Source: an uncultured Methanoregulaceae archaeon
GTDB lineage: Archaea; Halobacteriota; Methanomicrobia; Methanomicrobiales; Methanospirillaceae
Length of the DNA stretch: 64,000 bases
Direction of reading: 5' to 3'
NCBI GenBank assembly: GCA_963737635.1
Contig: CAVTTL010000001.1
Location: 192,001-256,000 of the forward strand
The notes under the pieces are model-generated. The model worked only from the letters and a program-made list of their open reading frames with translations. It was not told the DNA's origin and searched no databases. Positions 14,772 through 29,386 of the stretch are shown here, piece after piece. Made by a program: the position numbers and the translations under genes. Within the stretch, counting starts at the first letter, position 1, and every line of letters starts with the position of its first letter.

Positions 14772-15242
14772 TTAATTAAAATATCCTAATTTTTCGAGTA
14801 TCTTCTTGACAATGATCATTCCGTTGCCGTGGTGTTCCTGAGCATCGAGGAAAACCGCTCCGATGAGGGCTTCGAATACGGTGTCGAGTGCCTGGTCTCC
14901 TTTGATCCATTCTTCGTTCTTTTTTTCTCCTTCGCCCCAGAGAACGTATTTTTCTAGATGATGCTTTTCCGCAAACCCCCGGGTTCTTTCACGTTTCACT
15001 TCATTGGATTTTTCTATCGTAAGTTTTCCCGGATCACGTGTTCCTTCCTTATACAAATGGCACACGGTCACGGCATCGAGAATCGCATCGCCGACCGTAG
15101 CAAGCGGATCCATGCATTCCTTAATTTCATGATGCTCATTGATATATGCACGGCGGGTCAGTGCTGCGTCAAGCATTTTCCGATCCTGGAATCGGTATCC
15201 AATCAATTTCTCTAATTCTTTCGGTGACAGGGTTTCGGTCAT
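14772..15242 (-). CDS. Stand-alone ribonuclease III catalytic domain (no dsRBD)
   Basis: LEKLIGYRFQD..ML..ALT, LATVGDAIL, FEALIGAVFLD. Confidence 0.85.
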   Translation of the reverse strand: MTETLSPKELEKLIGYRFQDRKMLDAALTRRAYINEHHEIKECMDPLATVGDAILDAVTVCHLYKEGTRDPGKLTIEKSNEVKRERTRGFAEKHHLEKYVLWGEGEKKNEEWIKGDQALDTVFEALIGAVFLDAQEHHGNGMIIVKKILEKLGYFN

Positions 15243-15653: not shown

Positions 15654-18143
15654 ATGGATAACAATAAACAAACCGTCTCGAAATGGGAAAACCTTTTTCA
15701 TGAGACAATTGAAAGCAGAATATTATGGAGTCTTAATAACGGTTATTTAAACTTCAATGGAAACAAAATTTCTCTCCATTCGATAAATCGCCAATCCCTC
15801 CTTTTTTTTAAAGCTGCGATGGTTAAAGAAACACCTGCACTTTTAGTATATCCTTCCTTGAAATTAACGGTCACACCACTTTTAGCACTTGAATCCCTGT
15901 ATTTTCGCATTTACGAAAAAAAACTACCCTCTGGTCGTAATCAATTGGTTGTATTCAGCAGCAGGGTCGAACTAAGAAAGGAGATCAAAGATAACTTTCT
16001 CGCTTTAAAAGTGAACACGATGCCTCTTGCCATAAATGTTTTCCCGGTTGGTAGAATCACATCTAGCGGAGATATCATTAAAATATCAAAAACAGATCTT
16101 GAACCAAAACTGCTTATCTCTACGGGGCCAGTTGCACTGCCCAATCCAGAAATCTCAAAGAAGATCTTTGGTGCAATACTTGAAGCAACTTCAGATTTGA
16201 TGGAAAATCAAGCAAAAGAAATCTTTGACTGGGGAACCAAAAACTCGGTTCCGTTCATTTTCGTTATCTCATCGGACCCTCCCACCAATCTCGCAAAATT
16301 GATGATTGAAAAAAAATATCCTTATTGGGGGTGGGATTCGGCAACATTAAATTCAGATTGTAAAATTGATGAAACAGATCTTGAAACTGGAAAATTTAAT
16401 TTCGGACAACCGTTTTGTAGAGATTATCTTGAGATTCGAACAAAAGCCAGTGGTGTAAAAAAGGTCATTGCTCCGGTTAAAGAAAAGACGTTAAATTTAA
16501 TGCTAATTGAAATTCGAAAAGACTATTATGAGTTATCTATTTCTGCAAAATCACTTAATTTATCGGCAGCTAGCGATATAGCGAGACGTTTTCTTGGATG
16601 CATTTATGGTCTCGAAGAGATGACATCCCCAATTGACTACGCAGAATTTGAATTATCTAAACGATGGGGTACAATCCCATTGAAGGAGAGGATCATTGCT
16701 TTGAGAAATCAATGCTCTGCAATAAATGCAGAAAACCCACTCTTCGCTTCTTTTGCAACTCGTTCGTCTGATAAGCTTATTGATATCTATAAATATTTGG
16801 CTGAAAAAAAGACCGGCAAGCATTTGATAATACTTCAGATTATTAAGGAAGCGCTAATTAATAAAAAAACCGTCCTTTTCATTACAAAAAATGAGGCTCT
16901 CAATGAAGCGCTGAAAAAGTATCTGAAAAATGAGAGAGATTTGGATATTTCTCATCTAAAAAAACTGCATATCGTTTTTCTTGCGGCCAGCAGAATTTAT
17001 AAAAGCACCGAAGAACAGCAATTATTTGACACATGTATTTTATACGGTTGCCCCCGCTACTATCAAAAAGACATTTTCTCATATGCACGAGCTCGCCGCG
17101 TAGGAATTATTGCATATGAATCAGAAATACCTGCGATAAAATACATTCAAAATGAAATAGATCAAGTTCAAAATTACTTCTCGGACGCTTCGAAAACAAG
17201 TATTGTAAAGAGACTAACCGGCAGTGTGCCAAAAGAAACAGCTTTAGCGGTTAAACCAGCTCAAGAATTAATTAAAACCGAATTAATATTTATTAGTCCC
17301 CAAGATGCTGAAATGGGGGATATTTCGCCTGAGTCGATACTAACGAATTTTTTATCGTTAGATTGGGCGGTTGATTTTGAATGCCTAACTGAAGCTGAAG
17401 CCAAATCGGTAGATGAGAGGCTAAAAAAAGACTTTTCGAATCCAACGAAAGCTGTAATGATTAAGTTGCAACGCGGGAGACATATTTTTCTCCACGAAGA
17501 GAAACCAATTCAAATATACGACGATTCAACGGAGAAGGTTAAAGACCGTTTGGCGAAGAATCTAAAAAAAGGAGAATTTCTTATTCTTGTTGAGGATTCA
17601 ACTCGCAAATCTCTTGCTCAATCCGTCATAAGCAAAGTTAAATCACACCCCTCTATGATGAAAGTAGTGGTGTATCAGAAAGCTTGGTCATTTTATCTCA
17701 AACAGGCCCTTGAAGAGAGTCAGGACAGTTTTCTCGATGTAATTGAAAAACTTCACAATCGAGGAGCTGGTGAGCCAAATACGGCAATGTCAATATACCA
17801 ATGGATGAGCGGCGTAATTCTCGGACCCGGTGATTTAGAGAACATTAGGCGCATCGGCGAAATATATGATAAACCGTTTTTAGTGAATAATTACAAAGAA
17901 ATCATTGGAGCAATTTTACGGCTTCGGACGATTCACCGAAGTCTTGCAAAGCGTTTAAACAGATTAATACCTTTTGCAGGTATTGAAGCGGACAGAGGGA
18001 GGATTGAAAATGCAGTGATAGATGAGGAACTAGATCTTTATTTAGAAGATTTTGTAAACGTTGTCTCAGTTGAGCGTATCGAATCTGCAGAAATTGTTGA
18101 AATGTCTTCAGATAAAGTTCTTGACAGAGTAGTTTCAAATTAG
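15654..18143 (+). CDS. drmE: DISARM class II DrmE-like protein
   Basis: 829 aa directly upstream of DrmA-like helicase; degenerate helicase-like core; C-terminal NLKKGEFLIL...SIYQWMSG..GPGD.ENIRRIG pattern recalled from DrmE. Confidence 0.7.
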   Translation: MDNNKQTVSKWENLFHETIESRILWSLNNGYLNFNGNKISLHSINRQSLLFFKAAMVKETPALLVYPSLKLTVTPLLALESLYFRIYEKKLPSGRNQLVVFSSRVELRKEIKDNFLALKVNTMPLAINVFPVGRITSSGDIIKISKTDLEPKLLISTGPVALPNPEISKKIFGAILEATSDLMENQAKEIFDWGTKNSVPFIFVISSDPPTNLAKLMIEKKYPYWGWDSATLNSDCKIDETDLETGKFNFGQPFCRDYLEIRTKASGVKKVIAPVKEKTLNLMLIEIRKDYYELSISAKSLNLSAASDIARRFLGCIYGLEEMTSPIDYAEFELSKRWGTIPLKERIIALRNQCSAINAENPLFASFATRSSDKLIDIYKYLAEKKTGKHLIILQIIKEALINKKTVLFITKNEALNEALKKYLKNERDLDISHLKKLHIVFLAASRIYKSTEEQQLFDTCILYGCPRYYQKDIFSYARARRVGIIAYESEIPAIKYIQNEIDQVQNYFSDASKTSIVKRLTGSVPKETALAVKPAQELIKTELIFISPQDAEMGDISPESILTNFLSLDWAVDFECLTEAEAKSVDERLKKDFSNPTKAVMIKLQRGRHIFLHEEKPIQIYDDSTEKVKDRLAKNLKKGEFLILVEDSTRKSLAQSVISKVKSHPSMMKVVVYQKAWSFYLKQALEESQDSFLDVIEKLHNRGAGEPNTAMSIYQWMSGVILGPGDLENIRRIGEIYDKPFLVNNYKEIIGAILRLRTIHRSLAKRLNRLIPFAGIEADRGRIENAVIDEELDLYLEDFVNVVSVERIESAEIVEMSSDKVLDRVVSN

Positions 18144-18152
18144 GGTGATTTT

Positions 18153-21100
18153 GTGGTTGAATGTACTGGTGCAAATAACATTGTAAGAGGGAAATTCGTA
18201 AAGAAAATCCTTGAAAATATCCGATCTGTTGCTGATGGTTCAGCTTTCGATAGAGTCCTCGATGAAAAACCATCGAAAAAATTATTTATAGGTAACCTTA
18301 GTCCAAAAAAGAAATTGTCTGAAGTATCGTATATTTACTCAAAAACTGCTCCTTCGTCAGTTGGATTTGATGTTTTACTGTCTAAAAAAAATGCCGAAAA
18401 TGACAAAATTCGAATTAAAGTGAAGATTGCGTTCTATTATAAGGTTTTTCCAACTCGAGAGGAGCAAAAAGAGGTTTTCAAACAGCAGGATGAAGGGATA
18501 TATAGTCGAGATTCTTCCGGAATGGACTTGGAATTTGATGGCGAAAAAAGTGATTCATCTGACTCAGGTTACCGTCTTCGGACCGCATATGTAAAGACTA
18601 AACCAATTGAAATAGAAATTAACAAAAAAATCTCCGATTTAATTAACAAAGATTTGAATGGTTCTGGCCGTTTTCCCGAAGCTGATCGAATCGTCGCAAA
18701 AGCTAAAGAGGTTTTTAATAATGATTCGAATCGCTTCCGTTCTTCGAGAAATTCCGGTTTGAGCAGCGAATCAAGACATAAAGAGCCAAATGTTCCAAGA
18801 ATCGCGTTAGCGACAGCGGAATCCTGGCAAGATTTTATCCAGAAATGGGGGGAAAGAATTCCCGAACCCAAATGGAATGTTCAGATTTCATACAAAATAG
18901 CAGAATTCAATAATGACATCATTAAATTAACACTCATCGTTGAGAATGCACTTGAGGAGAACCAGGAAAAACAAGATATTGAAAATTCATTATTTGAGAC
19001 GGCTCTTTCCGTTGAGCCTATAGGTTTTGCTTTTAAGGACTATGTCCTCGAATATCTCAAAGACGACTATAAATATGACGGCAATATCCACGCTAGTGGA
19101 ATTAACTGTTCTACAGTGAAAGATGGCAATATTATCCGCATTGAACATATGCCGATTTTTATTCAGAAAAAATACAAATCAACCCAGTATGTCGATCCAA
19201 ATTTTAATATCTTATCAATGAATCCTGTACCCCTTTTAAAAACACTTTCTGACTTGATGGTCACAGAAATCAATGATCTTGAACAGAAGTTTAAGCAACG
19301 GATCGATTTAACAGATCAGGCTCGAAACCTCTTTAGAAAGGATATTAACGATTTTAAAGGAGAGGTGAGACGGTTTAATGATGGGATCGCTTGCCTTGAG
19401 AACGACCCTCAAGCGATGGAAGCGTTTTCATTAATGAATAAAGCATTTGCACAATCTAGTAAAGGTTTCTCATCTTGGCGTCTTTTTCAAATTGCATTTA
19501 TCGTAATGGAGATTCCAGATATTTTAACAGCATCTGGCAGAGGAAGTTCGACTACTTTAGGAGATGTCGATTTAATTTACTTCCCCACTGGCGGAGGGAA
19601 AACTGAGGCATATCTGGGTCTTGTGGTATTCACAGTTTTTTTTGATCGATTACGAGGGAAGAAGGAGGGTGTATCCGCAATCACGAGATTCCCTCTTAGA
19701 CTACTTTCACTTCAACAGCTTCAGAGAATTGCTGACATATTCGCAAAGGCAGAGATACTGAGAAGACGGCATCCGATAATTGGTTCAGCTGGATATGCTC
19801 CGTTCAGCACAGGATATTATGTCGGAAAAGATAATACACCGAATGAAGTCTATAAGGCAGGTTACCGAGAGAAAGAAACAATAGATGAAATTACACCGAT
19901 AAACACTGATTTAGATAGACAAGAGATATATAAAATCATTTCAACATGTCCTTTCTGCGGTCACGAATCGATTTCGATTCGAGGAGATCTCCCCTCACTT
20001 CGAATAATCCACCAATGTACTAATCCGAACTGTAAAGAAGAAATTCCCGTCTACATATCCGATCATGAAGTTTATCGGTATTTGCCGACATTCATCATTG
20101 CAACACTGGATAAAATGGCATCTGTTGGGTGGAGTAAAGAATTCAAGACTATTTTTGGTTCTGTATCCGGCAAATGCCCAAAACATGGTTTCTTTACCGG
20201 AGATCATTGTCTATATTGGAAAAAAAGCTATGATAAAGAAGATCCGAATCTATGTCAGATAGAAAAATACATTCCAGTAAAACTGTTTGACCCTGTCCCC
20301 ACTCTTATAATTCAGGATGAAATGCATTTAATACGGGAATCGCTTGGCACATACGATTCTCATTACGAGACGTTCATTGAACATTATACAAAAGAACTCT
20401 CTGGAGGCAAACTTGTAAAAATTATCGGCTCTTCTGCAACAATGACTGAATATTGGGGGCAGATTCGCCAGCTTTATATGAAAAATGGGCATCAATTTCC
20501 CTCAAATCGACATTTTTATGCTTGTGAGGATGATAATGAGACCTCCCGCTTAATCACCGGAATTATGCCCCACAACAAAACGGTAATTTTTGCAGTTTTA
20601 GATCTCATCGAAATGTATTATGAAGCAATCCATGACTTAAAAGAAAATCCCTCAAAAGCCCTCGCTATGAATGTAGGTTTTACGTCGACTGAAGAGGTAA
20701 TCCGAACTCTTAATGATTATGATCTCGGCTTAAGCTATAATTTAGTAAAATTAGAGGGGGATGCAATAAGCCAATCGATTCGGACCATGGTAAACGTTGA
20801 TCTTAAAAAAAGAAATATTCGCGAAATGTGCCCGGTAAAGATGACCGGAGATGTCACATTTCGTGACGTAAAAGACATCCTAAAAACAGTGGAGAGTAAC
20901 AATCCAAACAGTCATCTGGATTTGATTGTTGCCACGAGCATGATATCTCACGGTGTAGATATTGACAAAATGAATTATATGGTGTTCCGAGGCATGCCTA
21001 GAAACACCGCTGAATACATTCAAGCATACAGTCGGGTCGGAAGAAAATACCCTGGAATTATTTTTGTTGTTTTCAATCCAGCACGGGAGCGGGATCAAAG

Positions 21101-21584
21101 TTATTATAAGTATTTCACAAAATACCATGAATTTAAAGATATTCTTGTCGAGCCAGTTCCTTTGAATAGATGGGCAAAATTCGCAGTCAATAGGACTCTA
21201 CCCGGTATTTTCTCAGCCTATATTTTGAATTTTGTGAAAGATGAACATGGAAAAAGCCCATATATGACCAACACTTTTCGCGAGGCGATAGCCTCGCAGA
21301 CAATCACTGTTGATCAGATTACCAAATTTATCCTATCTTGCTATCAATGCAACGATCAAGATATGGGCCCATATTATCAGGATTACATTAGAAACAAGGT
21401 TATAAATTATGTCGACCGAATCCTTGCACATGACGGGAAGCCGGCTTTTATTCCAATGATTATGGCAGAAAAGCCGCTTACGAGCCTTAGAGATATGGAT
21501 ATACCAATTGAAATTTATCCGACGCGCGAAAGCTATCATCCAATGACTATGGTTCATGCACAATATTCACGGAGTGTTGAATAA
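18153..21584 (+). CDS. drmA: DISARM helicase DrmA (SF2)
   Basis: WRLFQIAFI, FPTGGGKTEAYLG, RFPLRLLSLQQ, IQDEMHL, ATSMISHGVDI, AEYIQAYSRVGR; CPFC/CTNPNC zinc motifs. Confidence 0.9.
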   Translation: MVECTGANNIVRGKFVKKILENIRSVADGSAFDRVLDEKPSKKLFIGNLSPKKKLSEVSYIYSKTAPSSVGFDVLLSKKNAENDKIRIKVKIAFYYKVFPTREEQKEVFKQQDEGIYSRDSSGMDLEFDGEKSDSSDSGYRLRTAYVKTKPIEIEINKKISDLINKDLNGSGRFPEADRIVAKAKEVFNNDSNRFRSSRNSGLSSESRHKEPNVPRIALATAESWQDFIQKWGERIPEPKWNVQISYKIAEFNNDIIKLTLIVENALEENQEKQDIENSLFETALSVEPIGFAFKDYVLEYLKDDYKYDGNIHASGINCSTVKDGNIIRIEHMPIFIQKKYKSTQYVDPNFNILSMNPVPLLKTLSDLMVTEINDLEQKFKQRIDLTDQARNLFRKDINDFKGEVRRFNDGIACLENDPQAMEAFSLMNKAFAQSSKGFSSWRLFQIAFIVMEIPDILTASGRGSSTTLGDVDLIYFPTGGGKTEAYLGLVVFTVFFDRLRGKKEGVSAITRFPLRLLSLQQLQRIADIFAKAEILRRRHPIIGSAGYAPFSTGYYVGKDNTPNEVYKAGYREKETIDEITPINTDLDRQEIYKIISTCPFCGHESISIRGDLPSLRIIHQCTNPNCKEEIPVYISDHEVYRYLPTFIIATLDKMASVGWSKEFKTIFGSVSGKCPKHGFFTGDHCLYWKKSYDKEDPNLCQIEKYIPVKLFDPVPTLIIQDEMHLIRESLGTYDSHYETFIEHYTKELSGGKLVKIIGSSATMTEYWGQIRQLYMKNGHQFPSNRHFYACEDDNETSRLITGIMPHNKTVIFAVLDLIEMYYEAIHDLKENPSKALAMNVGFTSTEEVIRTLNDYDLGLSYNLVKLEGDAISQSIRTMVNVDLKKRNIREMCPVKMTGDVTFRDVKDILKTVESNNPNSHLDLIVATSMISHGVDIDKMNYMVFRGMPRNTAEYIQAYSRVGRKYPGIIFVVFNPARERDQSYYKYFTKYHEFKDILVEPVPLNRWAKFAVNRTLPGIFSAYILNFVKDEHGKSPYMTNTFREAIASQTITVDQITKFILSCYQCNDQDMGPYYQDYIRNKVINYVDRILAHDGKPAFIPMIMAEKPLTSLRDMDIPIEIYPTRESYHPMTMVHAQYSRSVE

Positions 21585-23413
21585 TGAAGCGTGGAAAAAG
21601 TCAGGTCCTTTTTCGATATTTACCTGAATGTATCATAGATCATTCCGATTCACAGGCTATCGTAAAGATCATCTCATGGGATGCCGTTAAATCTGAAACA
21701 ATTAACGAATCGCGATTATCTTCAGAAGTGATTAGGAGACTTGATCGATTCAATAGAAAACATGGCTTTCCTACAACACCTCGTCCGGAATCGTTTGTCT
21801 TTCTTGAGCCAAAGTCGATCGATGTAGAATTATTTCCCCTAACTTTTGTCTGCAATAACTGTGGCAAATCTTATTCTTTTGACAATATTAGCCAATTTAC
21901 ACACCATTTCGGGGCTGCCGGATACCATTGTTCGTGCGGCGGGAATCTGCGACAACTGGATATGATTAATTATCATAAATGTGGAAAAATGTCCGGCCTA
22001 AAAATTCGGCCCTGCCCTACTCACGGCTTTCAGTTTATCCAACTTCAAACTAACAATAGCAGCCGAACCTCAAATTGGAGATGGAGATGTAATATTTGTG
22101 GGCGTGAAACAGGCGATGTATCTGAATGGTGTAGCGAATGCAAGCAACCAATGGAAACTGCCCCTTTCAGAAAAAGTCAGGTATTCTACCCTCATTCAAT
22201 ATCACTGATCAATACTGGAGGGATAGGCAAATTAGTAAACTATAGCGATTCAGATCTGCTAAAACTCTACATCGCGCAATACCTCGGAATGATCTCCAAA
22301 GAAAAATATCTGGAATATCGTGATTCTTCAAAAGATAATGAACGGAAAAAGAACGCCGAGAAAATACGTCAAGAATTGCTCGCGAAGGGTTTTCCGGAAG
22401 CCCTCATTAGCGCCGCCGTTGGGGCGGTTGAAGGTTCAGAGGACCATAAAAAACGCCAAGAAATTATTATGAATATAAACAAAGGTCTTGGCGTTGAGGG
22501 CGATGCTTTGGTGTCTTTAGTTTCATCATTGCAAAGTTTTCAGGATGCAGTAAATCTTCCCGAAACAAAAAATTTAAAAAATGTAATGGATGAAGCAAAA
22601 GTAAGGAATGATCCCAATTATAGACAGATCACTGAATTTCCGAAAGCCTTGGAGATGGCAGGGATAAATGAAGCGTACGTTGTAAGCGACCTTCCAGTAG
22701 TATCAGCTGTTTTTGGCTATTCGCGATCAACGCCAAACCCCGCTGAGTGTACATTGAGAGGATTTAATTTTGACAGGAAATATGAGGATAAAACTCCTAT
22801 TTATGTAAATCCGACGGAAACTGAAGGAATAATAATTGTATTCGATCGATGGAAGATACTCCGTTGGATGCAGGAAAATCAATTTGTATTCGAAATCCCC
22901 GATAAGAATGATGCACAGGGATTGAAGCAATGGTTCTTGCAAAAGATCAGATCTAACGAAATTCCAATTTATGATGAAATTCCTAACGTTCAGGCAGAAA
23001 CCAAAATGGTTTATTCGTTGATTCATACACTATCTCATATACTTATAAAAAACGCTGCGGGACTCGTGGGCATGGATAAGGACTCTCTTGCCGAAATCAT
23101 TTTTCCAACAGTGCCCGCTATTGTAATTTACACCAATAATGCTCATGATTTTCAGATCGGTGGAATGCATACGCTGTTCGAAACTGGAATTATTCCCTGG
23201 ATTAATATGGCATTTGAAAATGTTGAGACCTGCCTTTATGATCCAGTTTGCATTTCTTCAGAAGCATCTTGCCATGCCTGTCTCCATATCAGCGAAATAT
23301 CCTGTGCACATTTCAACAGAGATCTCGGGCGACATTATTTAATTGGGCGAGAAGATGAGCATGGCCGGTTACTAGGCTTTTGGGAGCGCGAATTTCTTAG
23401 AAGGCTGAAATAA
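21584..23413 (+). CDS. drmB: DISARM DrmB, DUF1998 (MrfA-like Zn-binding) protein
   Basis: LIHTLSHILIK and C-terminal CLYDPVC...SCHACLHISEISCAHFN.DL.R; translationally coupled to drmA. Confidence 0.9.
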   Translation: MKRGKSQVLFRYLPECIIDHSDSQAIVKIISWDAVKSETINESRLSSEVIRRLDRFNRKHGFPTTPRPESFVFLEPKSIDVELFPLTFVCNNCGKSYSFDNISQFTHHFGAAGYHCSCGGNLRQLDMINYHKCGKMSGLKIRPCPTHGFQFIQLQTNNSSRTSNWRWRCNICGRETGDVSEWCSECKQPMETAPFRKSQVFYPHSISLINTGGIGKLVNYSDSDLLKLYIAQYLGMISKEKYLEYRDSSKDNERKKNAEKIRQELLAKGFPEALISAAVGAVEGSEDHKKRQEIIMNINKGLGVEGDALVSLVSSLQSFQDAVNLPETKNLKNVMDEAKVRNDPNYRQITEFPKALEMAGINEAYVVSDLPVVSAVFGYSRSTPNPAECTLRGFNFDRKYEDKTPIYVNPTETEGIIIVFDRWKILRWMQENQFVFEIPDKNDAQGLKQWFLQKIRSNEIPIYDEIPNVQAETKMVYSLIHTLSHILIKNAAGLVGMDKDSLAEIIFPTVPAIVIYTNNAHDFQIGGMHTLFETGIIPWINMAFENVETCLYDPVCISSEASCHACLHISEISCAHFNRDLGRHYLIGREDEHGRLLGFWEREFLRRLK

Positions 23414-23556
23414 TGGTCTATCTAATAGCCGCCAATATCACAATGCATTGTTTAAAAAATAATTTTGAAATTGACGTTATTCTCAAAGGGGCAATAGTGA
23501 GACCTCTTTCTGGCATTACTGCTCATGTAGGGGCAACTTGGTTCATGTCGATTTAG
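23413..23556 (+). pseudogene. 47 aa remnant resembling the C-terminal part of a phospholipase-D-family DrmC
   Basis: ATG overlaps drmB stop (TAATG); MVYLIAANITMHCLKNNFEIDVILKG resembles the PLD xxGSANxTxxGLxxNxExxV motif but lacks HxK. Confidence 0.5.
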
Positions 23557-23595
23557 ATAAAGAGAAAATCATTTGAAAACAATGGATGAAGGAAC

Positions 23596-24760
23596 ATGGC
23601 TGAATTAAAAAACGGCATCTTAGATATTTTCTGCGGAGCTGGGGGCCTTAAGCTTAGGATTCCTTCTTGAAGGATTTGACGTTGTTTATTCGAGCGATAG
23701 CAATTCGAGGGCAATAGAAACGATAGAATACAATCATAAGAAAATTCATTTAGCTAAAGAGGAGGAGAATTATCATTGTACTGATGTTGAAGATATTAAT
23801 GGGCTCAATCCACGAAAAGTCAGAAAAATATTTCGAGAACGTGGTTATCGTATTCAAGGGATTATAGGTGGGCCGCCGTGTCAAGGCTTCTCAGTAGCAA
23901 ACAAAAAGACACGCACAATAGACAATCCCGCAAATTCCCTCTTCAGACAATATCTGAGATTAATCGGGGATCTGCATCCAGATTTTATTGTATTTGAAAA
24001 TGTTGTTGGCTTTTTATCTATGGCTGACGGGGAATTCAAAGAGACAATACTAACAACTTTACGTGATCTGAACTATGTGGCTGATTGTAGAGTCCTAGAT
24101 TCCCATTGGTATGGTGTTCCTCAAACCCGAAGGCGTGTAATTATCATTGGAATTAAACGTTGCAAAGTGAAAAAAGACTATAAGGAAAAGATCGAATTCC
24201 CAGAGAAAAAAGTAGATTCTGCACCAACTGTTAAAAATGCTTTTTCTGGCCTCCCAAAGATTAAGATGGGAGAGACTTGCGAAATTCAATCCTATAGACC
24301 CGGACGCATGAGTCGCTACGCAAAAGCATTGCGGTCATCCCCGGAAGTGAAGCTTTCATCGGATAATGTATTAAATCATGTTACAACATTAAGTAACAAT
24401 TTGGTTCTTAAACGGTATAAAATTCTGAAGCAAGGACAAAATTGGGAAAATCTTCCTAAAAGACTTCTCAAGAACTATGACGCTGATAATCGCAAGCATT
24501 CATATATCCATTCCTATATCTACAAACGTCTAGAGGAAGATAAACCCAGTATAACTGTGAGCGATTTCCGCAAATGCATGTTCATCCATCCCAGTGAGGA
24601 TCGAGGATTGTCCGTTCGAGAAGCGGCACGACTCCAATCATTTCCTGACTGGTATGAATTTAAAGGTGAATTGGGCAACAAACAGCAGCAGGTTGCCTGT
24701 GCTGTTCCTCCACTAATGGCGAGGGAAATTGCGAAAGCAATAAAGAAGATGCTAAAGTAA
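23596..24760 (+). CDS. DNA (cytosine-5) methyltransferase, DrmMII-like (frameshift near 23650)
   Basis: Motif I DIFCGAGG after ATG 23596; in shifted frame GGPPCQGFS, FENV, YGVPQTRRR, RGLSVREAARLQSFPD, AVPP. Confidence 0.9.
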
Positions 24761-24770
24761 TTCCTCTCTT

Positions 24771-25178
24771 ATGACTGACTGTTACCCAAAAGAAGTGAGA
24801 AGCAGAGTGATGTCAAACATCAAATCAAAAAATACCAAACCTGAAGTTTTACTGAGGAAATGCCTTTGGAATCAAGGATATCGAGGCTATAGAATACATA
24901 ACAAGACTCTGCCAGGGAAACCAGATATTGTATTCAAGAAACAGAAAATTGCAATTTTTATCGACGGATGTTTCTGGCATAAATGCCCCTTAGATTTTCA
25001 GACGCCAAAAACTAATACAAAATACTGGATAAGAAAGATTGAAATAAATGTCGAACGGGATAAAAAAGTCAATGAGGAGCTACGAAGGGAGGGTTGGATT
25101 GTCGTCAGGATTTGGGAACATGTAGTAAAGAAGGACCCTCAAAATGCTATTGATAAAATCATTCCATTTTTTGATTGA
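24771..25178 (+). CDS. vsr: Very short patch repair endonuclease
   Basis: RSRVMSNIKSKNTKPEV, LPGKPDIVF, FIDGCFWH, RIWEH. Confidence 0.95.
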   Translation: MTDCYPKEVRSRVMSNIKSKNTKPEVLLRKCLWNQGYRGYRIHNKTLPGKPDIVFKKQKIAIFIDGCFWHKCPLDFQTPKTNTKYWIRKIEINVERDKKVNEELRREGWIVVRIWEHVVKKDPQNAIDKIIPFFD

Positions 25179-25301
25179 AGAATACAACTTAAAATTGAAA
25201 CCTACTTAATATTTCAGAATATTGATACCATTCCCAAATATTGAAAAATTGAAATAATTGATTCATATTTTGTAGAATTGAACGAATTCTTGCTCAAAAG
25301 C

Positions 25302-26181
25302 TTATGACTCGTAATCGAATTCAATAATATAAAGCCAACTTTTTTCATATCCTTGAGAAGCTTTTGAATTATATTCCATTGGATATGGGTATATTACTCG
25401 ACATTCAGGATTTTCTAATACAAATAAAAAACAACCCAATGCCATTGGTTTGGTACTTAATGGAGTGTACTGAGATATTATATCGTTTTTTCCGCTCTTT
25501 ATAAATTTGTATTAATTCGTTTCTTGTTTCAAAAGGATCGTTGAAGGGGGCATAGCTGAGATTTTTTACAGTTTGACTCTCTTTTAATATTTCATCATTT
25601 AATAGTAGACAAATATCTTTGAATTCAGGTCGATAGCTTGGAAATCCGTTAATTGGAATCGTTACTTCAGGATTGATTTCATTTGTAACTTCTTTTGCTC
25701 TTTGGCCTTCACCCCCCAATAAAATAATCAATGCGTCGTCCTTTGTAGAATTCTGACACCCAGAAAATGATAGCATATCTTTCGGAGGGGTATTACTTCC
25801 CCGTGTAAAATATGGATCATCATGCTGCTTTTTCTGAATGTCATATGTCTTTGGCTCAGTATAGAGCAAAAATATCTTTTTAATTCTTTTATATACAATA
25901 AGAAATTTCAATAAAATAAAAAAGTAAGGTTTAACCATTACAGAAAAGTCAAGAATTATTGATAATTGATCAAGATCTTTGTACTCTGAATCTATAAATT
26001 CCATAAATGATTCTAATCCAGTAGACTCATCCATCATTTTAACAAATAATTGTTTATCATTTTCATTAAAATCAAAAATTGAGTTAAAATAAGCAATATT
26101 TCGTGATCTTGTTACATTATCTTCAAAAGATTCTTTTCTATCAACTACTTCATTGAAAAAAAAGAGAACTTTCTTTTTCAC
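25302..26181 (-). CDS. Uncharacterised Rossmann-like partner of the PRTase/ATPase operon (frameshift near 25470)
   Basis: ILDFSVMVK, LYTEP..Y, ILLGGEGQR, GFPSY, DPF; shifted frame continues TPLSTKPMALG...VIYPYPMEY...SQG to stop at 25302. Confidence 0.7.
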
Positions 26182-26198
26182 ATTAATATCAGATGATT

Positions 26199-28164
26199 TT
26201 AATAAATTCCAACCAACTGGACACCGTTCTTCGGAATCCTGCCTCGCGTATTATAAGATATTGAAAATTTTGGAGATAGAATGTGATTTAAGACATAGAC
26301 ATCTAACAACGGAGATCCTGGCTTTTTCCCTCTCATCGGTTCTTTTTGTTGCAATATCGACCATTGAACTGCTTTATCCAAAACATCTTTTACTTTAGGA
26401 GATAATGTTGTTTTGTCGACGTAAAAATATGTAACTTCAGGTTCGCTAATCCTCGGATCGGAATACCACGAGGAAAAAATTGCTCCCAAAGATTGAGTTA
26501 AGGATTTAATTTCATTACCATATTCTGGAATGTTTTCGATACTCTTGAAAAATTTTTCTGAACGAATATTTGCAGATTTTGTCTGAAGTTCAAAGTCGAT
26601 ACATTTATTCTTAATCACAGAGCCAGAGGCATAAAAAAAATCGTTTTTAAAACTTTGATAACATAATTCAATAAAATTACGAATTAATCCTGATGAAAGT
26701 TGTCCGAATACCTGGAAGCCGGCATATTCTTTTTGTGTTGGGGGATAATAGGAAATTCAGCTGAAATACTAATGCTAATTTATTTTTGCTATAAAGATCA
26801 TCATATGTTTTTATAATTTCCGATTCAGCATTGGAAGGGGAGCCTTTTTTCTGTTTCAAATATGACTGAGTGATTATCTGTAATTCATCGAGTGAATATT
26901 TCCCTCTGATAATTAGAACCATGCTAAGGATATCAATAAGCGGATTATCAATAGAGATCAAATTTTTCAAAATTGTATCTACATTATTCAGATTATCATT
27001 TTTAATCCGAACAGATAAAATTTCGTGTAATTTTACAACATGCTTTTTTTTCTTATACGTATCAAAATCACAACTTGTATCTTTGTTATTTTCTTTTCCA
27101 AATACAATTTTTCGGGCTTCCATCTCTGGAGTTAATTTTCCCAAAATTTTCTCTATATCGTAATTATTACGATTTTTAAATATTTCCCTTTCTTCCAATC
27201 GCTTATCAGCGATAGCTCGAATAAATCGAAAATAATCTTTGTCTGATACAACATCTTCAAAAGAAATTGTTCTAAAATCTGCATCCTCCATTAAAAATTC
27301 ATCTTTATTCATTGTGTCGAAGGTTTTTAAACCGTAAAATCTGCTACCGATAACAAAAGTAACGGGAGGTTGAACATGCTTAATAAGAGTATTGATAATC
27401 AATTGCTGCATTCTCGATGCATTTTCATATTCGTCTAGTAAAATTACGAATTTTTTCCGTTTAAACGAAGGGATAATATTATTAATTATTTTAGGAACGC
27501 CAAATATCAAATACCCAGACGAAAAAATAAATTCGGATTCAAATTTGGGGTTTTTATTAAACGGAGCATTGTTAATAAACTTAAAAACTTTCTTTGACAA
27601 TGACTCTAACTTTTCAATAAGAATTTCGAAGGATGTATCTCCAATATCCGACTCCGATGACTCAAAAATATATTTATCAAGATCGCGAATCAATTTTTTA
27701 ATCGTATTTTCGTCAACATCCAAATATTCATTTGCTTTAAGATTTTCTAGCATTTGGACATATTTTTTACAAATCACTATTTCCATGTAATGTTTAAATA
27801 TAGTCTCCCATTCAGTATCACCAAGGTTTCGTTTTTCAAAGATTGAAAGCGATGGGCCATCAAATCTATTATAAACCCCAATATAATGCAAATTTGCTAG
27901 AAAATCATTTTTTGAAATATTATCAATTTTTGATCTTTTAATTTGAATTTCATTTGACATATATTTAAGAATCATTGTTTTTCCGCAGCCTCTCCCACCC
28001 ATGAAAAATATCGGAGGTGAAGATATCAATTCAGCTCCATTCTGTATCAAATCAGAAAGAGGACCTGGAGTAATCCAAAATCTTATAATTTCGTCATCTT
28101 CCATGAGATTTGCGTTGAAGCCTGCAAACGGATTAACCATTCTTTCTGCCATATTTAGCTCCAA
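26199..28164 (-). CDS. AAA+/STAND-like (ORC/CDC6-like) NTPase, about 650 aa after frameshift correction
   Basis: N-terminal NPF; Walker A GGRGCGKT; Walker B ILLDEYEN; bridging frame ~26640-26750 reads EYAGFQVFGQLSSGLIRNFIELC, joining ORF 26677..28164 to 26199..26618 (YVLNHILSPKF.ISY.TRG). Confidence 0.8.
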
Positions 28165-29039
28165 TACTTTTTTCTTCTTCTAGGAAATATCGGAACCCAA
28201 TCTTTATTACTAGACCAAATAACTGGAAGTGTGTTATTAGGAATGTTATGATGTAATCCTATAAGAAGTTCTGAATTTTTATATCCCAAAGCATACATAT
28301 CTCCCTCTAAAAAAATTCCGATTTTTTGACACGTGATCTGTGCTATTTTCATATCTGATGCTGAATAACCTGATAATATCTTTGTGTCGGGAGAAAATAC
28401 TTTATACTCTTGAGGTATCATCTCGGCATAAATCAACTTACAATTTGCATCAGATGACTGGATTTTTTTTAAACCTAATTCTGTAACTATCAAAGATAAA
28501 TAGTAAATTTGGATTTTTGGAAATTTTGTAAAAATTCCTGCATTTTTCAAGGATTGGTTAAATTTTAATACCGTATCACCAGTACCAATAAAATCATCAA
28601 CAAAAATCAATGTCTGCGCATCTGGTTTGATTTCATCAATTGAATTAATGAAAATATCTAATGGAAGATCATGAATTTGTCTAAACAGATATGCAAAATG
28701 CGCGCTACTATCTCCATTTTTTCCAATAAATTGTATTTTATTTATTGAGTCATTAAAAGATTTTTCGGCGTCTTTAATCGATATCCCCGTTAGTATTTTT
28801 TCTTTTATCATCTGTCGTTTATATTCAGAGAATGCATGTTTGCATAAATATTTAATTTCAGATTCATTATAATAGATAAATCCAAGTAATAAGTCCATTG
28901 CTAATTGTCGAACATTAATATTTTTTTGAGGTTTGAAATTTTTTATCCAGTCTTCAACATCCTGTTTTGAAATACGCCTCTCCCAAACTACTTCGTTGAC
29001 ATCATTGCAATATTGGAAAAATTTTTCTTCGTCGATCAT
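28155..29039 (-). CDS. Phosphoribosyltransferase-like protein (conflict-system type)
   Basis: PRPP-binding loop LIFVDDFIGTGDT; C-terminal LGY......HHNIPNNTLPVIW....W.PIFPR; overlaps ATPase start. Confidence 0.85.
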   Translation of the reverse strand: MIDEEKFFQYCNDVNEVVWERRISKQDVEDWIKNFKPQKNINVRQLAMDLLLGFIYYNESEIKYLCKHAFSEYKRQMIKEKILTGISIKDAEKSFNDSINKIQFIGKNGDSSAHFAYLFRQIHDLPLDIFINSIDEIKPDAQTLIFVDDFIGTGDTVLKFNQSLKNAGIFTKFPKIQIYYLSLIVTELGLKKIQSSDANCKLIYAEMIPQEYKVFSPDTKILSGYSASDMKIAQITCQKIGIFLEGDMYALGYKNSELLIGLHHNIPNNTLPVIWSSNKDWVPIFPRRRKKYWS

Positions 29040-29386
29040 AAAAATCTATTAAGTTTGTATTCCGTTTGCATCATTTGGATATTTCCATTTTAAAGAATGA
29101 ACTCTCGTATTAATTGTAATTTTTTAAATATAAAATGATTACTTTTTTATTCAAAAAGCAATTCTTCAGGTCGCCGAGTTTTAACTTTATTCTCATACTG
29201 AGATCCACACCCTAAGGAACGATTCAATACTCCCATCTTTCCTTCGTCGTGTAACCTTCTTCCATAAAACTGCTTTAGGATCATCTCCCACCTCTCCGAA
29301 TCGTTCTCACGTCGCCACGCCAGTGTTCATCCCCTGGCCCATCCCGTTTCCATCCAACCAGAATCGCTTCATCGTACCCTTTTCTC

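Follow-up and report, generated by a model that had tools for sequence, protein, structure and literature searches.

A damaged archaeal copy of a widespread methyltransferase-linked cassette encoding a PRTase, an ORC/Cdc6-like ATPase and a tandem CARF protein

The effector of type III-A retrons such as Retron-Eco11 is a phosphoribosyltransferase (PRTase) described as an abortive-infection enzyme that depletes phosphoribosyl pyrophosphate (PRPP); the activated Retron-Eco11 type III-A3 PRTase lowers PRPP by ~50% (PMC12746101). ShosT is a PRTase toxin that disrupts purine metabolism (PMC11961720), the defence PRTases of retrons, ShosTA and PsyrTA are stated in a preprint to form one clade (10.1101/2025.09.30.679545), and Pfam family PF24390 is used as a label for the retron III-A effectors (PMC13712802). 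RADAR combines an ATPase (RdrA) with an adenosine deaminase (RdrB). Almost all that is understood of CARF and SAVED sensors concerns the reception of cyclic nucleotides made by Cas10 or CD-NTase enzymes. Here we describe a cassette of three tightly packed, AT-rich minus-strand genes found in an open reading frame (ORF) scan at positions 25302-29039 of a 64,000-nucleotide stretch from an uncultured Methanoregulaceae archaeon (contig CAVTTL010000001.1; hereafter the window). It ties a tandem CARF protein to an ORC/Cdc6-like AAA+ ATPase, to an enzyme that putatively uses PRPP and to a DNA methylase; a cyclase was not seen. The host genome encodes McrA, and the host is therefore a methanogen-type archaeon. 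An initial annotation of the window had listed motifs and coordinates for the three genes, all of which were confirmed. We consider it moderately probable that the cassette is what remains of a conflict module that is widespread and moves horizontally, and in which methylation-linked defence is combined with an ATPase-CARF sensor and a PRPP-consuming PRTase effector.

A search for relatives of the locus with the single PRTase protein found none, and a pattern search with a CARF alignment was used instead, with one genome taken per species, giving 28 homologous loci. The PRTase, ATPase and CARF genes have the same order and strand in 21 of the 28, which are all the loci that could be evaluated. 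Of the remaining seven, six break off at a contig end ahead of the upstream genes (L019 and L024 lie at a contig start), and the seventh (L029), a weak 78-residue tblastn match with no profile match, was excluded from the counts. The conserved three-gene cassette of conflict type that the initial annotation had proposed is thus upheld. The hosts include Methanoregula, Methanophagales, Bathyarchaeota, Caldisericota, Acidobacteriota, Bacteroidota, Planctomycetota, Nitrospira, Verrucomicrobia and Gammaproteobacteria, and the module is spread over the archaea and at least ten bacterial phyla, so that intact versions are easy to obtain for testing. One locus carries a natural PRTase-ATPase fusion of 956 residues (L018, 3492-6362), and in another the ATPase is split over two ORFs (L022, 5731-7690).

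The neighbourhoods were compared by scanning 148 flanking ORFs against Pfam, drawn from the 25 loci that had matches to the query proteins. Wherever the flanks could be read, in 19 of 19 loci, a DNA methyltransferase (MTase) adjoins the triplet; L003 and L010 are cut. Three classes of enzyme occur: PF01555 directly upstream in ten loci, C5 cytosine enzymes in four and PF02384/Eco57I-like enzymes in five. The class of the MTase tracks the ATPase tree, on which the PF02384 set forms one clade (SH-aLRT 100) and the MTase labels require 5 changes vs. a mean of 10.7 after shuffling, with none of 200 shuffles as low. The MTase is a near-constant fourth component, which adds to the earlier three-gene picture. 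The intact module consists of a DNA methyltransferase, a PRTase of the PRTase-CE family, an ORC/Cdc6-like ATPase and a stand-alone tandem CARF protein, often with a thymidylate synthase added. The three cassette proteins showed no nuclease domain, and judged by its gene content the module falls outside the strict definition of restriction-modification, an MTase with a cognate endonuclease. The co-inheritance of a dedicated MTase with an ORC/Cdc6-like ATPase of BrxC-like fold (9zdx), with no obvious nuclease, resembles BREX and DISARM. Unlike these systems, the cassette has no equivalents of PglZ, BrxL, DrmA or DrmB, its MTases are small type II-like enzymes of three classes, and a PRTase takes the place of the effector.

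The PRTase matches PF24390 (PRTase-CE) over the whole model (positions 1-253 of 253) with 175.1 bits and an E-value of 3.2e-51 (cut-off 27), and the PADLOC model PRTase_III-A with 4.3e-40 over residues 6-290. Since the profile scores for PF24390, PRTase_III-A, PF24389 (ATPase) and CARF6 (CARF protein) are strong, the ORFs of the cassette are not chance frames. The PRPP-binding loop of type I PRTases consists of a hydrophobic run followed by DD and a T/S-G-x-T element. The VDDFIGTGDT sequence of the window PRTase fits this loop, with catalysis putative; HHNIPNNTLPVIW is present in the same ORF, and the C-terminal region carries the conserved NIPNNTLP..W motif. D148, D149, P267 and W281 are conserved across 20 PRTase homologs. 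The proposal in the initial annotation that the PRTase acts on nucleotides is borne out in part by the full-length homology to retron type III-A effectors, one of which depletes PRPP (PMC12746101). The window PRTase shares its Pfam family with these effectors and matches their models over its full length. However, the surroundings differ from those of a type III-A retron. No reverse transcriptase domain was found in the ORFs scanned in and around the cassette or in the homologous loci, and a non-coding RNA was not searched for; the cassette appears to be controlled by the ATPase and the tandem CARF protein rather than by multicopy single-stranded DNA, and it has a linked MTase. The PRTase is the presumed effector, because it is homologous to the retron type III-A effectors and occupies the slot that in sister cassettes holds a TIR, kinase or metallophosphatase domain.

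By its family and its fold matches, the ATPase is probably an AAA+ protein of the ORC/Cdc6 clade. It matches PF24389 in two segments, with 239.2 bits and 1.3e-70 over model positions 1-349 and 79 bits and 4.4e-22 over positions 448-569 (cut-off 27). Its Walker A motif GGRGCGKT has an arginine within the P-loop, its Walker B motif is LLDEYEN, and SSGLIRNFIELC is present in the same protein. G51, G56, K57, D237, E238 and E240 are invariant in 20 homologs, and the arginine of GGRGxGKT is nearly invariant among the ATPase homologs. A structure model was made on the homolog from the syntenic Methanoregula metagenome-assembled genome (MAG) contig L002, with a mean predicted local distance difference test score (pLDDT) of 84.7. 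Foldseek matched this model to RdrA (8hr8, E 1.5e-4, prob 0.97), BrxC (9zdx, prob 1.0) and archaeal Orc1/Cdc6 (2qby, 2v1u); the matches have a probability of 0.97-1.0 but a global template-modelling (TM) score of only 0.16-0.37. In the ORC/Cdc6 clade, a lid and then a C-terminal winged-helix domain come after the AAA+ core; residues 566-612 of the model form a strand-helix-strand-strand element of winged-helix-like appearance. The best Foldseek match, the RdrA ring, and the pairing of an ORC/Cdc6-like ATPase with an enzyme presumed to attack the nucleotide pool bring the cassette close to RADAR. In contrast, the global superposition on RdrA is poor (TM 0.16-0.21), the NCBIfam RdrA model scores 19.5 bits vs. 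a cut-off of 600, and the cassette has no deaminase and has CARF and MTase partners added.

The initial annotation had called the ATPase STAND-like and regarded it as a sensor or switch. The first designation found no support: no STAND profile reached its cut-off for the window ATPase (NPHP3_N at E 0.11), and a paralog scored 19 bits with nSTAND3 vs. a cut-off of 27.2. A role as a sensor or switch is plausible, given the predicted binding to the CARF protein. The model of the complex between the ATPase (residues 1-655) and the CARF protein reached an ipSAE of 0.75 in each of three runs, and the best of three controls reached 0.01. Of 80 solved complexes, 58 attained the mark applied to ipSAE, as did 2 of 110 mismatched pairs; because the complex was modelled from custom alignments, these figures apply to it only approximately. 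The contacts agree to at least 85% and the pLDDT of the partner is at least 79. In the model, the helical insert of the AAA+ domain (residues 94-132 and 176-195) packs against the junction of the two CARF halves. The modelling supports binding of the ATPase to the CARF protein.

The third protein has no Pfam family. It is matched by 12 PADLOC models of CARF6--CARF_CARF_CARF, which derive from a CARF classification, the best with 1.9e-35. The AlphaFold2 model of a full-length homolog (P0002; pLDDT 82, predicted TM score 0.87) shows two Rossmann-like halves. VIA-align placed Can1 (6sce) first, with a Z-score of 13.5 and a root-mean-square deviation of 4.1 for 244 residues over both halves. The C-terminal half of the model gave Z-scores of 9.2-13.1 to at least 12 solved CARF domains, among them Csm6 (13.1), Can2 (12.3), Cam1 (12.1) and Card1 (11.2). 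SAVED proteins gave Z-scores of 7-8.6, and Foldseek matched the model to Cam1, Csm6 and Card1 with a probability of 1.0. The CARF signature combines a polar residue at the close of strand 1 with a basic one behind strand 4, the latter commonly in the form [DN]X[ST]XXX[RK] (PMC4012209). DFSVMVK in the N-terminal half fits this pattern exactly, and the C-terminal half has an invariant lysine (K295, in PLGTKP); among 40 CARF homologs, D126 is likewise invariant and K132 has a conservation of 90% or more. The window copy contains DFSVMVK, YTEPKTY, LGGEGQR and STKP. With sequences clustered at 50% identity, a profile search of the family gave 2494 representatives at E ≤ 1e-3, 1289 of them at E ≤ 1e-10, and the representatives are nearly all 290-345 residues long. 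By its model, the third protein is a stand-alone tandem CARF protein with no effector domain. Thus, of the two natures that the initial annotation had considered for this ligand-binding partner, the CARF-like one agrees with the PADLOC matches and the fold, and the inactive PRTase found no support.

Can1 is a nuclease activated by cyclic tetra-adenylate, with two CARF domains in each chain. The cassette protein shares with it, and with the CARF and SAVED effectors Csm6, Cap4 and Cap5, the CARF-like fold, here in two halves per chain as in Can1, and the conserved basic residues after strand 4. Unlike those effectors, it has no fused effector domain, no cyclase in its operon, no cas or CD-NTase neighbours, and an AAA+ ATPase as its partner. 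As the best structural matches (Can1, Csm6, Can2, Cam1 and Card1) all bind cyclic oligoadenylates, the cassette could be an accessory of type III CRISPR, in which the tandem CARF protein senses the products of a Cas10 complex encoded elsewhere and the rest serves as an ancillary effector module. However, no cas gene was present among the 148 neighbouring ORFs of the 25 loci, and Klebsiella and Moraxella plasmids carry the operon as a four-gene unit that is complete in itself. Type III CRISPR-Cas is not known from Klebsiella pneumoniae, which also counts against this explanation, and we consider it very improbable. Identification of the CARF ligand would take CARF signalling beyond CRISPR.

The same genome contains a second AT-rich cassette (31-33% GC) outside the window (G000:C1 ~2130690-2134847; L039 4690-8847), which encodes a calcineurin-like phosphoesterase (Metallophos, 438 residues), a full-length ORC-CDC6-like ATPase (668 residues) and a CARF6 protein (280 residues). 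Other relatives have a TIR-ATPase fusion followed by a CARF gene, or a kinase-ATPase fusion followed by a CARF gene, one of the latter beside DruA. The upstream enzyme is exchangeable and the ATPase and CARF protein are constant, which is the usual signature of an effector slot; effector swapping provides a natural experiment in which one sensor drives different effector enzymes. The kinase forms recall the Zn-ribbon, Ser/Thr kinase, AAA+, CARF and winged helix-turn-helix proteins of Makarova et al. (2014), as do the GGRGCGKT motif of the window ATPase and its weak match to the PADLOC model CARF6--CARF_STK_AAA (2.4e-4). In the window, unlike in those proteins, the ATPase, the CARF protein and the effector are encoded by separate genes, and the effector is a PRTase. 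The second cassette appears intact, and its island has no methyltransferase. Another cassette (L036/L043; G101:C1 ~448700-453000) encodes a divergent PRTase-CE (387 residues) and an ORC-CDC6-like ATPase (654 residues), followed by a protein of 385 residues that matches neither the CARF profile nor a Pfam family and may be a different sensor partner.

Two further readings were considered. In the first, the ATPase and tandem-CARF pair would be a general, CRISPR-independent infection sensor with interchangeable effectors (PRTase, TIR, metallophosphatase or kinase). Its PRTase form, with a DNA methylase and often a thymidylate synthase, would then be a new class of epigenetically gated immunity that acts by depleting nucleotide precursors, with a CARF ligand made without a cyclase, possibly by the PRTase. 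We put this forward tentatively, as possible rather than probable; the system is common, with more than 100 Klebsiella conjugative plasmids carrying it, and its cassette genes are annotated there as hypothetical. In the second, the PRTase would make a PRPP-derived messenger that the tandem CARF protein senses to gate the ATPase, and the ATPase would be the true effector on unmethylated DNA, for example through a replication block as proposed for BREX-type ATPases. The conserved pocket residues of the CARF protein and the lack of a cyclase, which leaves the PRTase as the sole candidate ligand maker in the operon, are compatible with such signalling, as are the BrxC-like fold, the predicted ATPase-CARF contact and the MTase linkage, which fits a DNA-directed end point. 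Nevertheless we judge it unlikely: the enzymes that replace the PRTase in sister cassettes are typical effectors and do not belong to the messenger synthases, the PRTases of retrons, which are homologous, serve as effectors, and the versions without an MTase speak against an obligatory read-out of DNA methylation.

ATPase homologs were found on 154 PLSDB plasmids, 128 from Klebsiella, and 135 of the 154 are predicted to be conjugative. The two plasmids that were checked, one Klebsiella IncR plasmid and one from Moraxella, carry the MTase, PRTase-CE, ORC-CDC6-like and CARF6 genes closely packed in one operon. On both plasmids the annotation lists the three cassette genes as hypothetical; it does the same for the Moraxella MTase, but gives the Klebsiella MTase as a tRNA methyltransferase. 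On this Klebsiella plasmid (OW967834.1; L030 2732-7783) the operon lies a few kb from an aminoglycoside resistance gene. A contig filed under 'Acinetobacter phage MD-2021a' (CAKLQF020000018.1; L032) carries the cassette and its MTase beside tRNA-Val, with ordinary bacterial genes in its flanks (threonine dehydratase, cstA); it resembles a contig of bacterial origin, or the flank of a prophage, more than the genome of a phage. The distribution in the class of the host is patchy, with PF24389 above the cut-off in 15 of 201 genomes and matches at E ≤ 0.001 in 6 of 41 genomes of the genus. Positions 25001-29000 are the most AT-rich part of the window, with a GC fraction of 0.29-0.31, compared with at least 0.48 just downstream of the cassette and 0.36-0.40 in the adjoining DISARM genes.

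This mobility also bears on a housekeeping role, in which the PRTase, a thymidylate synthase (ThyX or ThyA), the MTase and a glycosylase or Vsr would serve salvage, thymidylate supply, or base modification and repair. ThyX lies directly downstream of the CARF gene in 5 of the 21 loci (L002, L006, L008, L011 and L020; above the TIGR02170 cut-off) and ThyA near the cassette in L014, so that one or the other of these two unrelated synthase families is linked in six. Vsr (L002, L005) or an HhH-GPD glycosylase (L003, L004, L020) accompanies the C5 versions, and many loci lie among metabolic genes. A thymidylate or deoxynucleoside kinase (Tmk or dNK) occurs near the cassettes of L004 and L013, which also fits such a role. 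However, Vsr and HhH-GPD proteins are the ordinary companions of C5 methylases and require no special pathway. The patchy distribution, the position of the cassettes as AT-rich islands within GC-rich genomes, the spread of the ATPase homologs on mostly conjugative plasmids, the neighbourhood of some loci to DISARM, type I restriction-modification, AbiE or DruA, and the exchange of the effector with TIR are all at odds with a housekeeping module, and we hold this explanation to be improbable.

In the conflict-module reading that we favour, the ATPase and the tandem CARF protein would be the sensing and regulatory core, to which the fusions, the constant gene pairing and the complex model point. 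The MTase would mark self DNA so that the ATPase spares the host chromosome, as its constant linkage and the co-phylogeny with three unrelated MTase classes suggest. The conserved signature residues are consistent with a CARF pocket that binds a nucleotide-derived ligand and thereby tunes the switch. The PRTase effector, once licensed, would consume PRPP and starve the infected cell of nucleotides.

Several observations weigh against this reading. A measured activity for any of the three proteins was not found in the literature. Among the 20 PRTase homologs, those of the PF01555-linked clade do not conserve TG.T in the PRPP loop; PRPP use may not be universal. The PRPP drop in Retron-Eco11 is ~50%, in one study, with P = 0.04 (PMC12746101). 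Within ~8 kb of the TIR, kinase and Metallophos versions and of one divergent PRTase version, tblastn (E ≤ 1e-4) found none of the three linked MTase classes; therefore the ATPase-CARF core needs no methylation, and this reading does not account for why the PRTase subtype has an MTase. PRPP depletion does not account for the linkage to ThyX or ThyA. No enzyme that could make a CARF ligand (cyclase or CD-NTase) was found beside any cassette in the Pfam scan of the 148 neighbouring ORFs. Known defence genes flank only ~5 of the 21 homologous loci, the others lying among housekeeping genes. Of the two patterns that the initial annotation named for checking, the gene order proved conserved, and proximity to known defence genes applies to a minority of the loci.

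The families of the cassette are already recognised computationally, as Pfam or PADLOC models exist for all three proteins; a dedicated ATPase model was not found in PADLOC. A hit to an already named system, which the initial annotation had allowed for, was not found. No NCBIfam model reached its cut-off for any of the three proteins (besides RdrA, DS32_1 scored weakly with 26.9 bits vs. 250), and neither the CARF profile, the PRTase nor the ATPase profile had a significant sequence match in the PDB. A search of the literature found no experimental study and no named system of a PRTase, an ORC/Cdc6 ATPase and a CARF protein, with or without an MTase; a prior computational description is possible.

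Comparison with L002 by blastn and tblastn showed three differences within the window cassette: two 1-nt insertions, near 26758 in the ATPase gene and near 25466 in the CARF gene, and a 224-bp gap at 26232/26233. In the deposited sequence, the insertions divide the ATPase gene into frames at 26677-28164 and 26199-26756 and the CARF gene into frames at 25405-26181 and 25302-25511. Soil-metagenome runs from several studies contain this stretch of the window, and the Logan contigs of four of them were aligned to it; X1 is a possible source sample, and X3, X4 and X6 belong to other studies. The base at 26758 is left out in X1 (12.8 of 12.8), X3 (7 of 7) and X4 (2.7 of 2.7), X6 having no cover there. 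At 25466/25467, X1 and X3 have one base left out and one substitution, and the loose ends of X4 and X6 at 25468 are consistent with the shorter version, which restores the CARF frame and gives an alanine at a family-consensus alanine position. The shorter versions at both sites restore the reading frames and agree with the family consensus. The two frameshifts are assembly errors or rare variants and not lesions of the organism, because the runs from other studies carry the shorter sequence. The frameshifts that the initial annotation had marked for correction are thus absent from the read-based contigs. Two other explanations were dropped on the same grounds: a pseudogene cluster with three lesions, two of which the read-based contigs overturned, and programmed +1 frameshifting at the two same-direction shifts, as these contigs lack the extra bases. 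Relative to the read-based contigs of three or four runs, the assembly has two single-base errors within 3.85 kb. Frameshifts of 1 nt elsewhere in the assembly should not be taken as pseudogenes without a check of the reads.

The gap is of a different kind. The aligned blocks (L002 537-3514 with window 29232-26233, and L002 3739-4667 with window 26232-25312) meet at 26232/26233, and the contigs of all four runs pass through this junction collinearly without a gap; the 224-bp deletion is therefore genuine in the organism. It eliminates residues 633-672 of the ATPase, the intergenic spacer and residues 1-31 of the CARF protein (L002 numbering). In tblastn the ATPase matched residues 1-465 and 454-632 of the 672 of its nearest homolog, whose last ~40 residues are replaced by 9 unrelated ones. 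The first usable start of the CARF gene is a GTG at 26181, ~48 codons into the gene, giving ~291 residues vs. ~343 in all eight close homologs. Mapped on the model of the full-length homolog, the lost part includes the first strand and the first helix of the N-terminal CARF domain; both lysine motifs after strand 4, DFSVMVK and STKP, are retained. The third gene, first described as a complete protein of ~290 residues, is thus a truncated copy from a family of ~343. ThyX, which in L002 lies between the CARF gene and Vsr, is absent from the window, where ~125 bp remain at that position. Only the PRTase is fully intact among the cassette genes of the window. Because of the real deletion and the loss of ThyX, together with most of DrmC, the window copy is most likely inactive or only partly active. 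It is in itself a damaged example of a testable family and carries a modest message for the host genome.

Coordinates of the cassette genes, their sequence differences and the adjoining genes in the window.
Feature	Position	Strand	Basis or remark
PRTase-CE gene	28155..29039	-	294 aa, intact; PF24390 and PADLOC PRTase_III-A matches
ORC-CDC6-like AAA+ ATPase gene	26199..28164	-	~650 aa without the spurious base at 26758; PF24389
Truncated tandem-CARF gene (CARF6 family)	25302..26181	-	PADLOC CARF6, model, alignment to 343-aa homologs
Extra base splitting the ATPase frame	26758..26758		Missing from read-based contigs
Junction of the 224-bp deletion relative to L002	26232..26233		blastn and contigs of four runs
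Second spurious base, frameshift near the CARF C-terminus	25466..25467		Read-based contigs
DrmE	15654-18143	+	DrmE_C domain; PADLOC DrmE 8e-33
DrmA	18153-21584	+	PADLOC DrmA 3.5e-196
DrmB	21584-23413	+	PADLOC DrmB 7.3e-88
DrmC remnant (phospholipase D family)	23407..23567	+	tblastn: only the equivalent of L002 residues 239-292 of 294
C5 cytosine DNA methyltransferase (DrmMII-like)	23596..24760	+	Pfam, PADLOC, L002 comparison
Vsr very-short-patch repair endonuclease	24771..25178	+	PF03852 1.4e-29; PADLOC Vsr; 71% identical to L002 Vsr

The defence-island context noted in the initial annotation was confirmed, with DrmE, DrmA, DrmB, the C5 MTase and Vsr directly beside the cassette. The DISARM genes, the C5 MTase and Vsr adjoin it on the plus strand in convergent orientation, and Pfam also found helicase and MZB domains in the DISARM genes at 15654..23413. 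By its gene content, the neighbouring locus appears to be a class 2 DISARM, a system made up of DrmE, DrmA, DrmB, DrmC and DrmMII; here DrmE, DrmA, DrmB and a C5 MTase are present, and DrmC is cut to ~50 residues. The whole island is syntenic with L002 at 71-78% nucleotide identity. The L002 contig carries DrmA, DrmB, an intact DrmC of 294 residues (L002:6998-7882, PLDc_2), the C5 MTase, Vsr and ThyX together with the triplet. Neither a tRNA nor an integrase was seen where the island begins and ends. Immediately ahead of DrmE, where the AT-rich island has its left edge, an RNase III-like ORF (PF14622, 1.9e-16) lies on the minus strand at 14772-15242. The frame of the C5 MTase is open from 23642, and its first 20 codons, with the FCGAGG motif, lie in another frame; this apparent shift by 1 nt near 23650 may likewise stem from the assembly instead of reflecting a broken gene. 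On the other side of the cassette, a weak remnant of 35 residues (29150-29254, minus strand, E 1.6e-5) corresponds to the gene that precedes the PRTase in L002, which matches a PADLOC type II methyl-directed restriction enzyme (6.9e-53).

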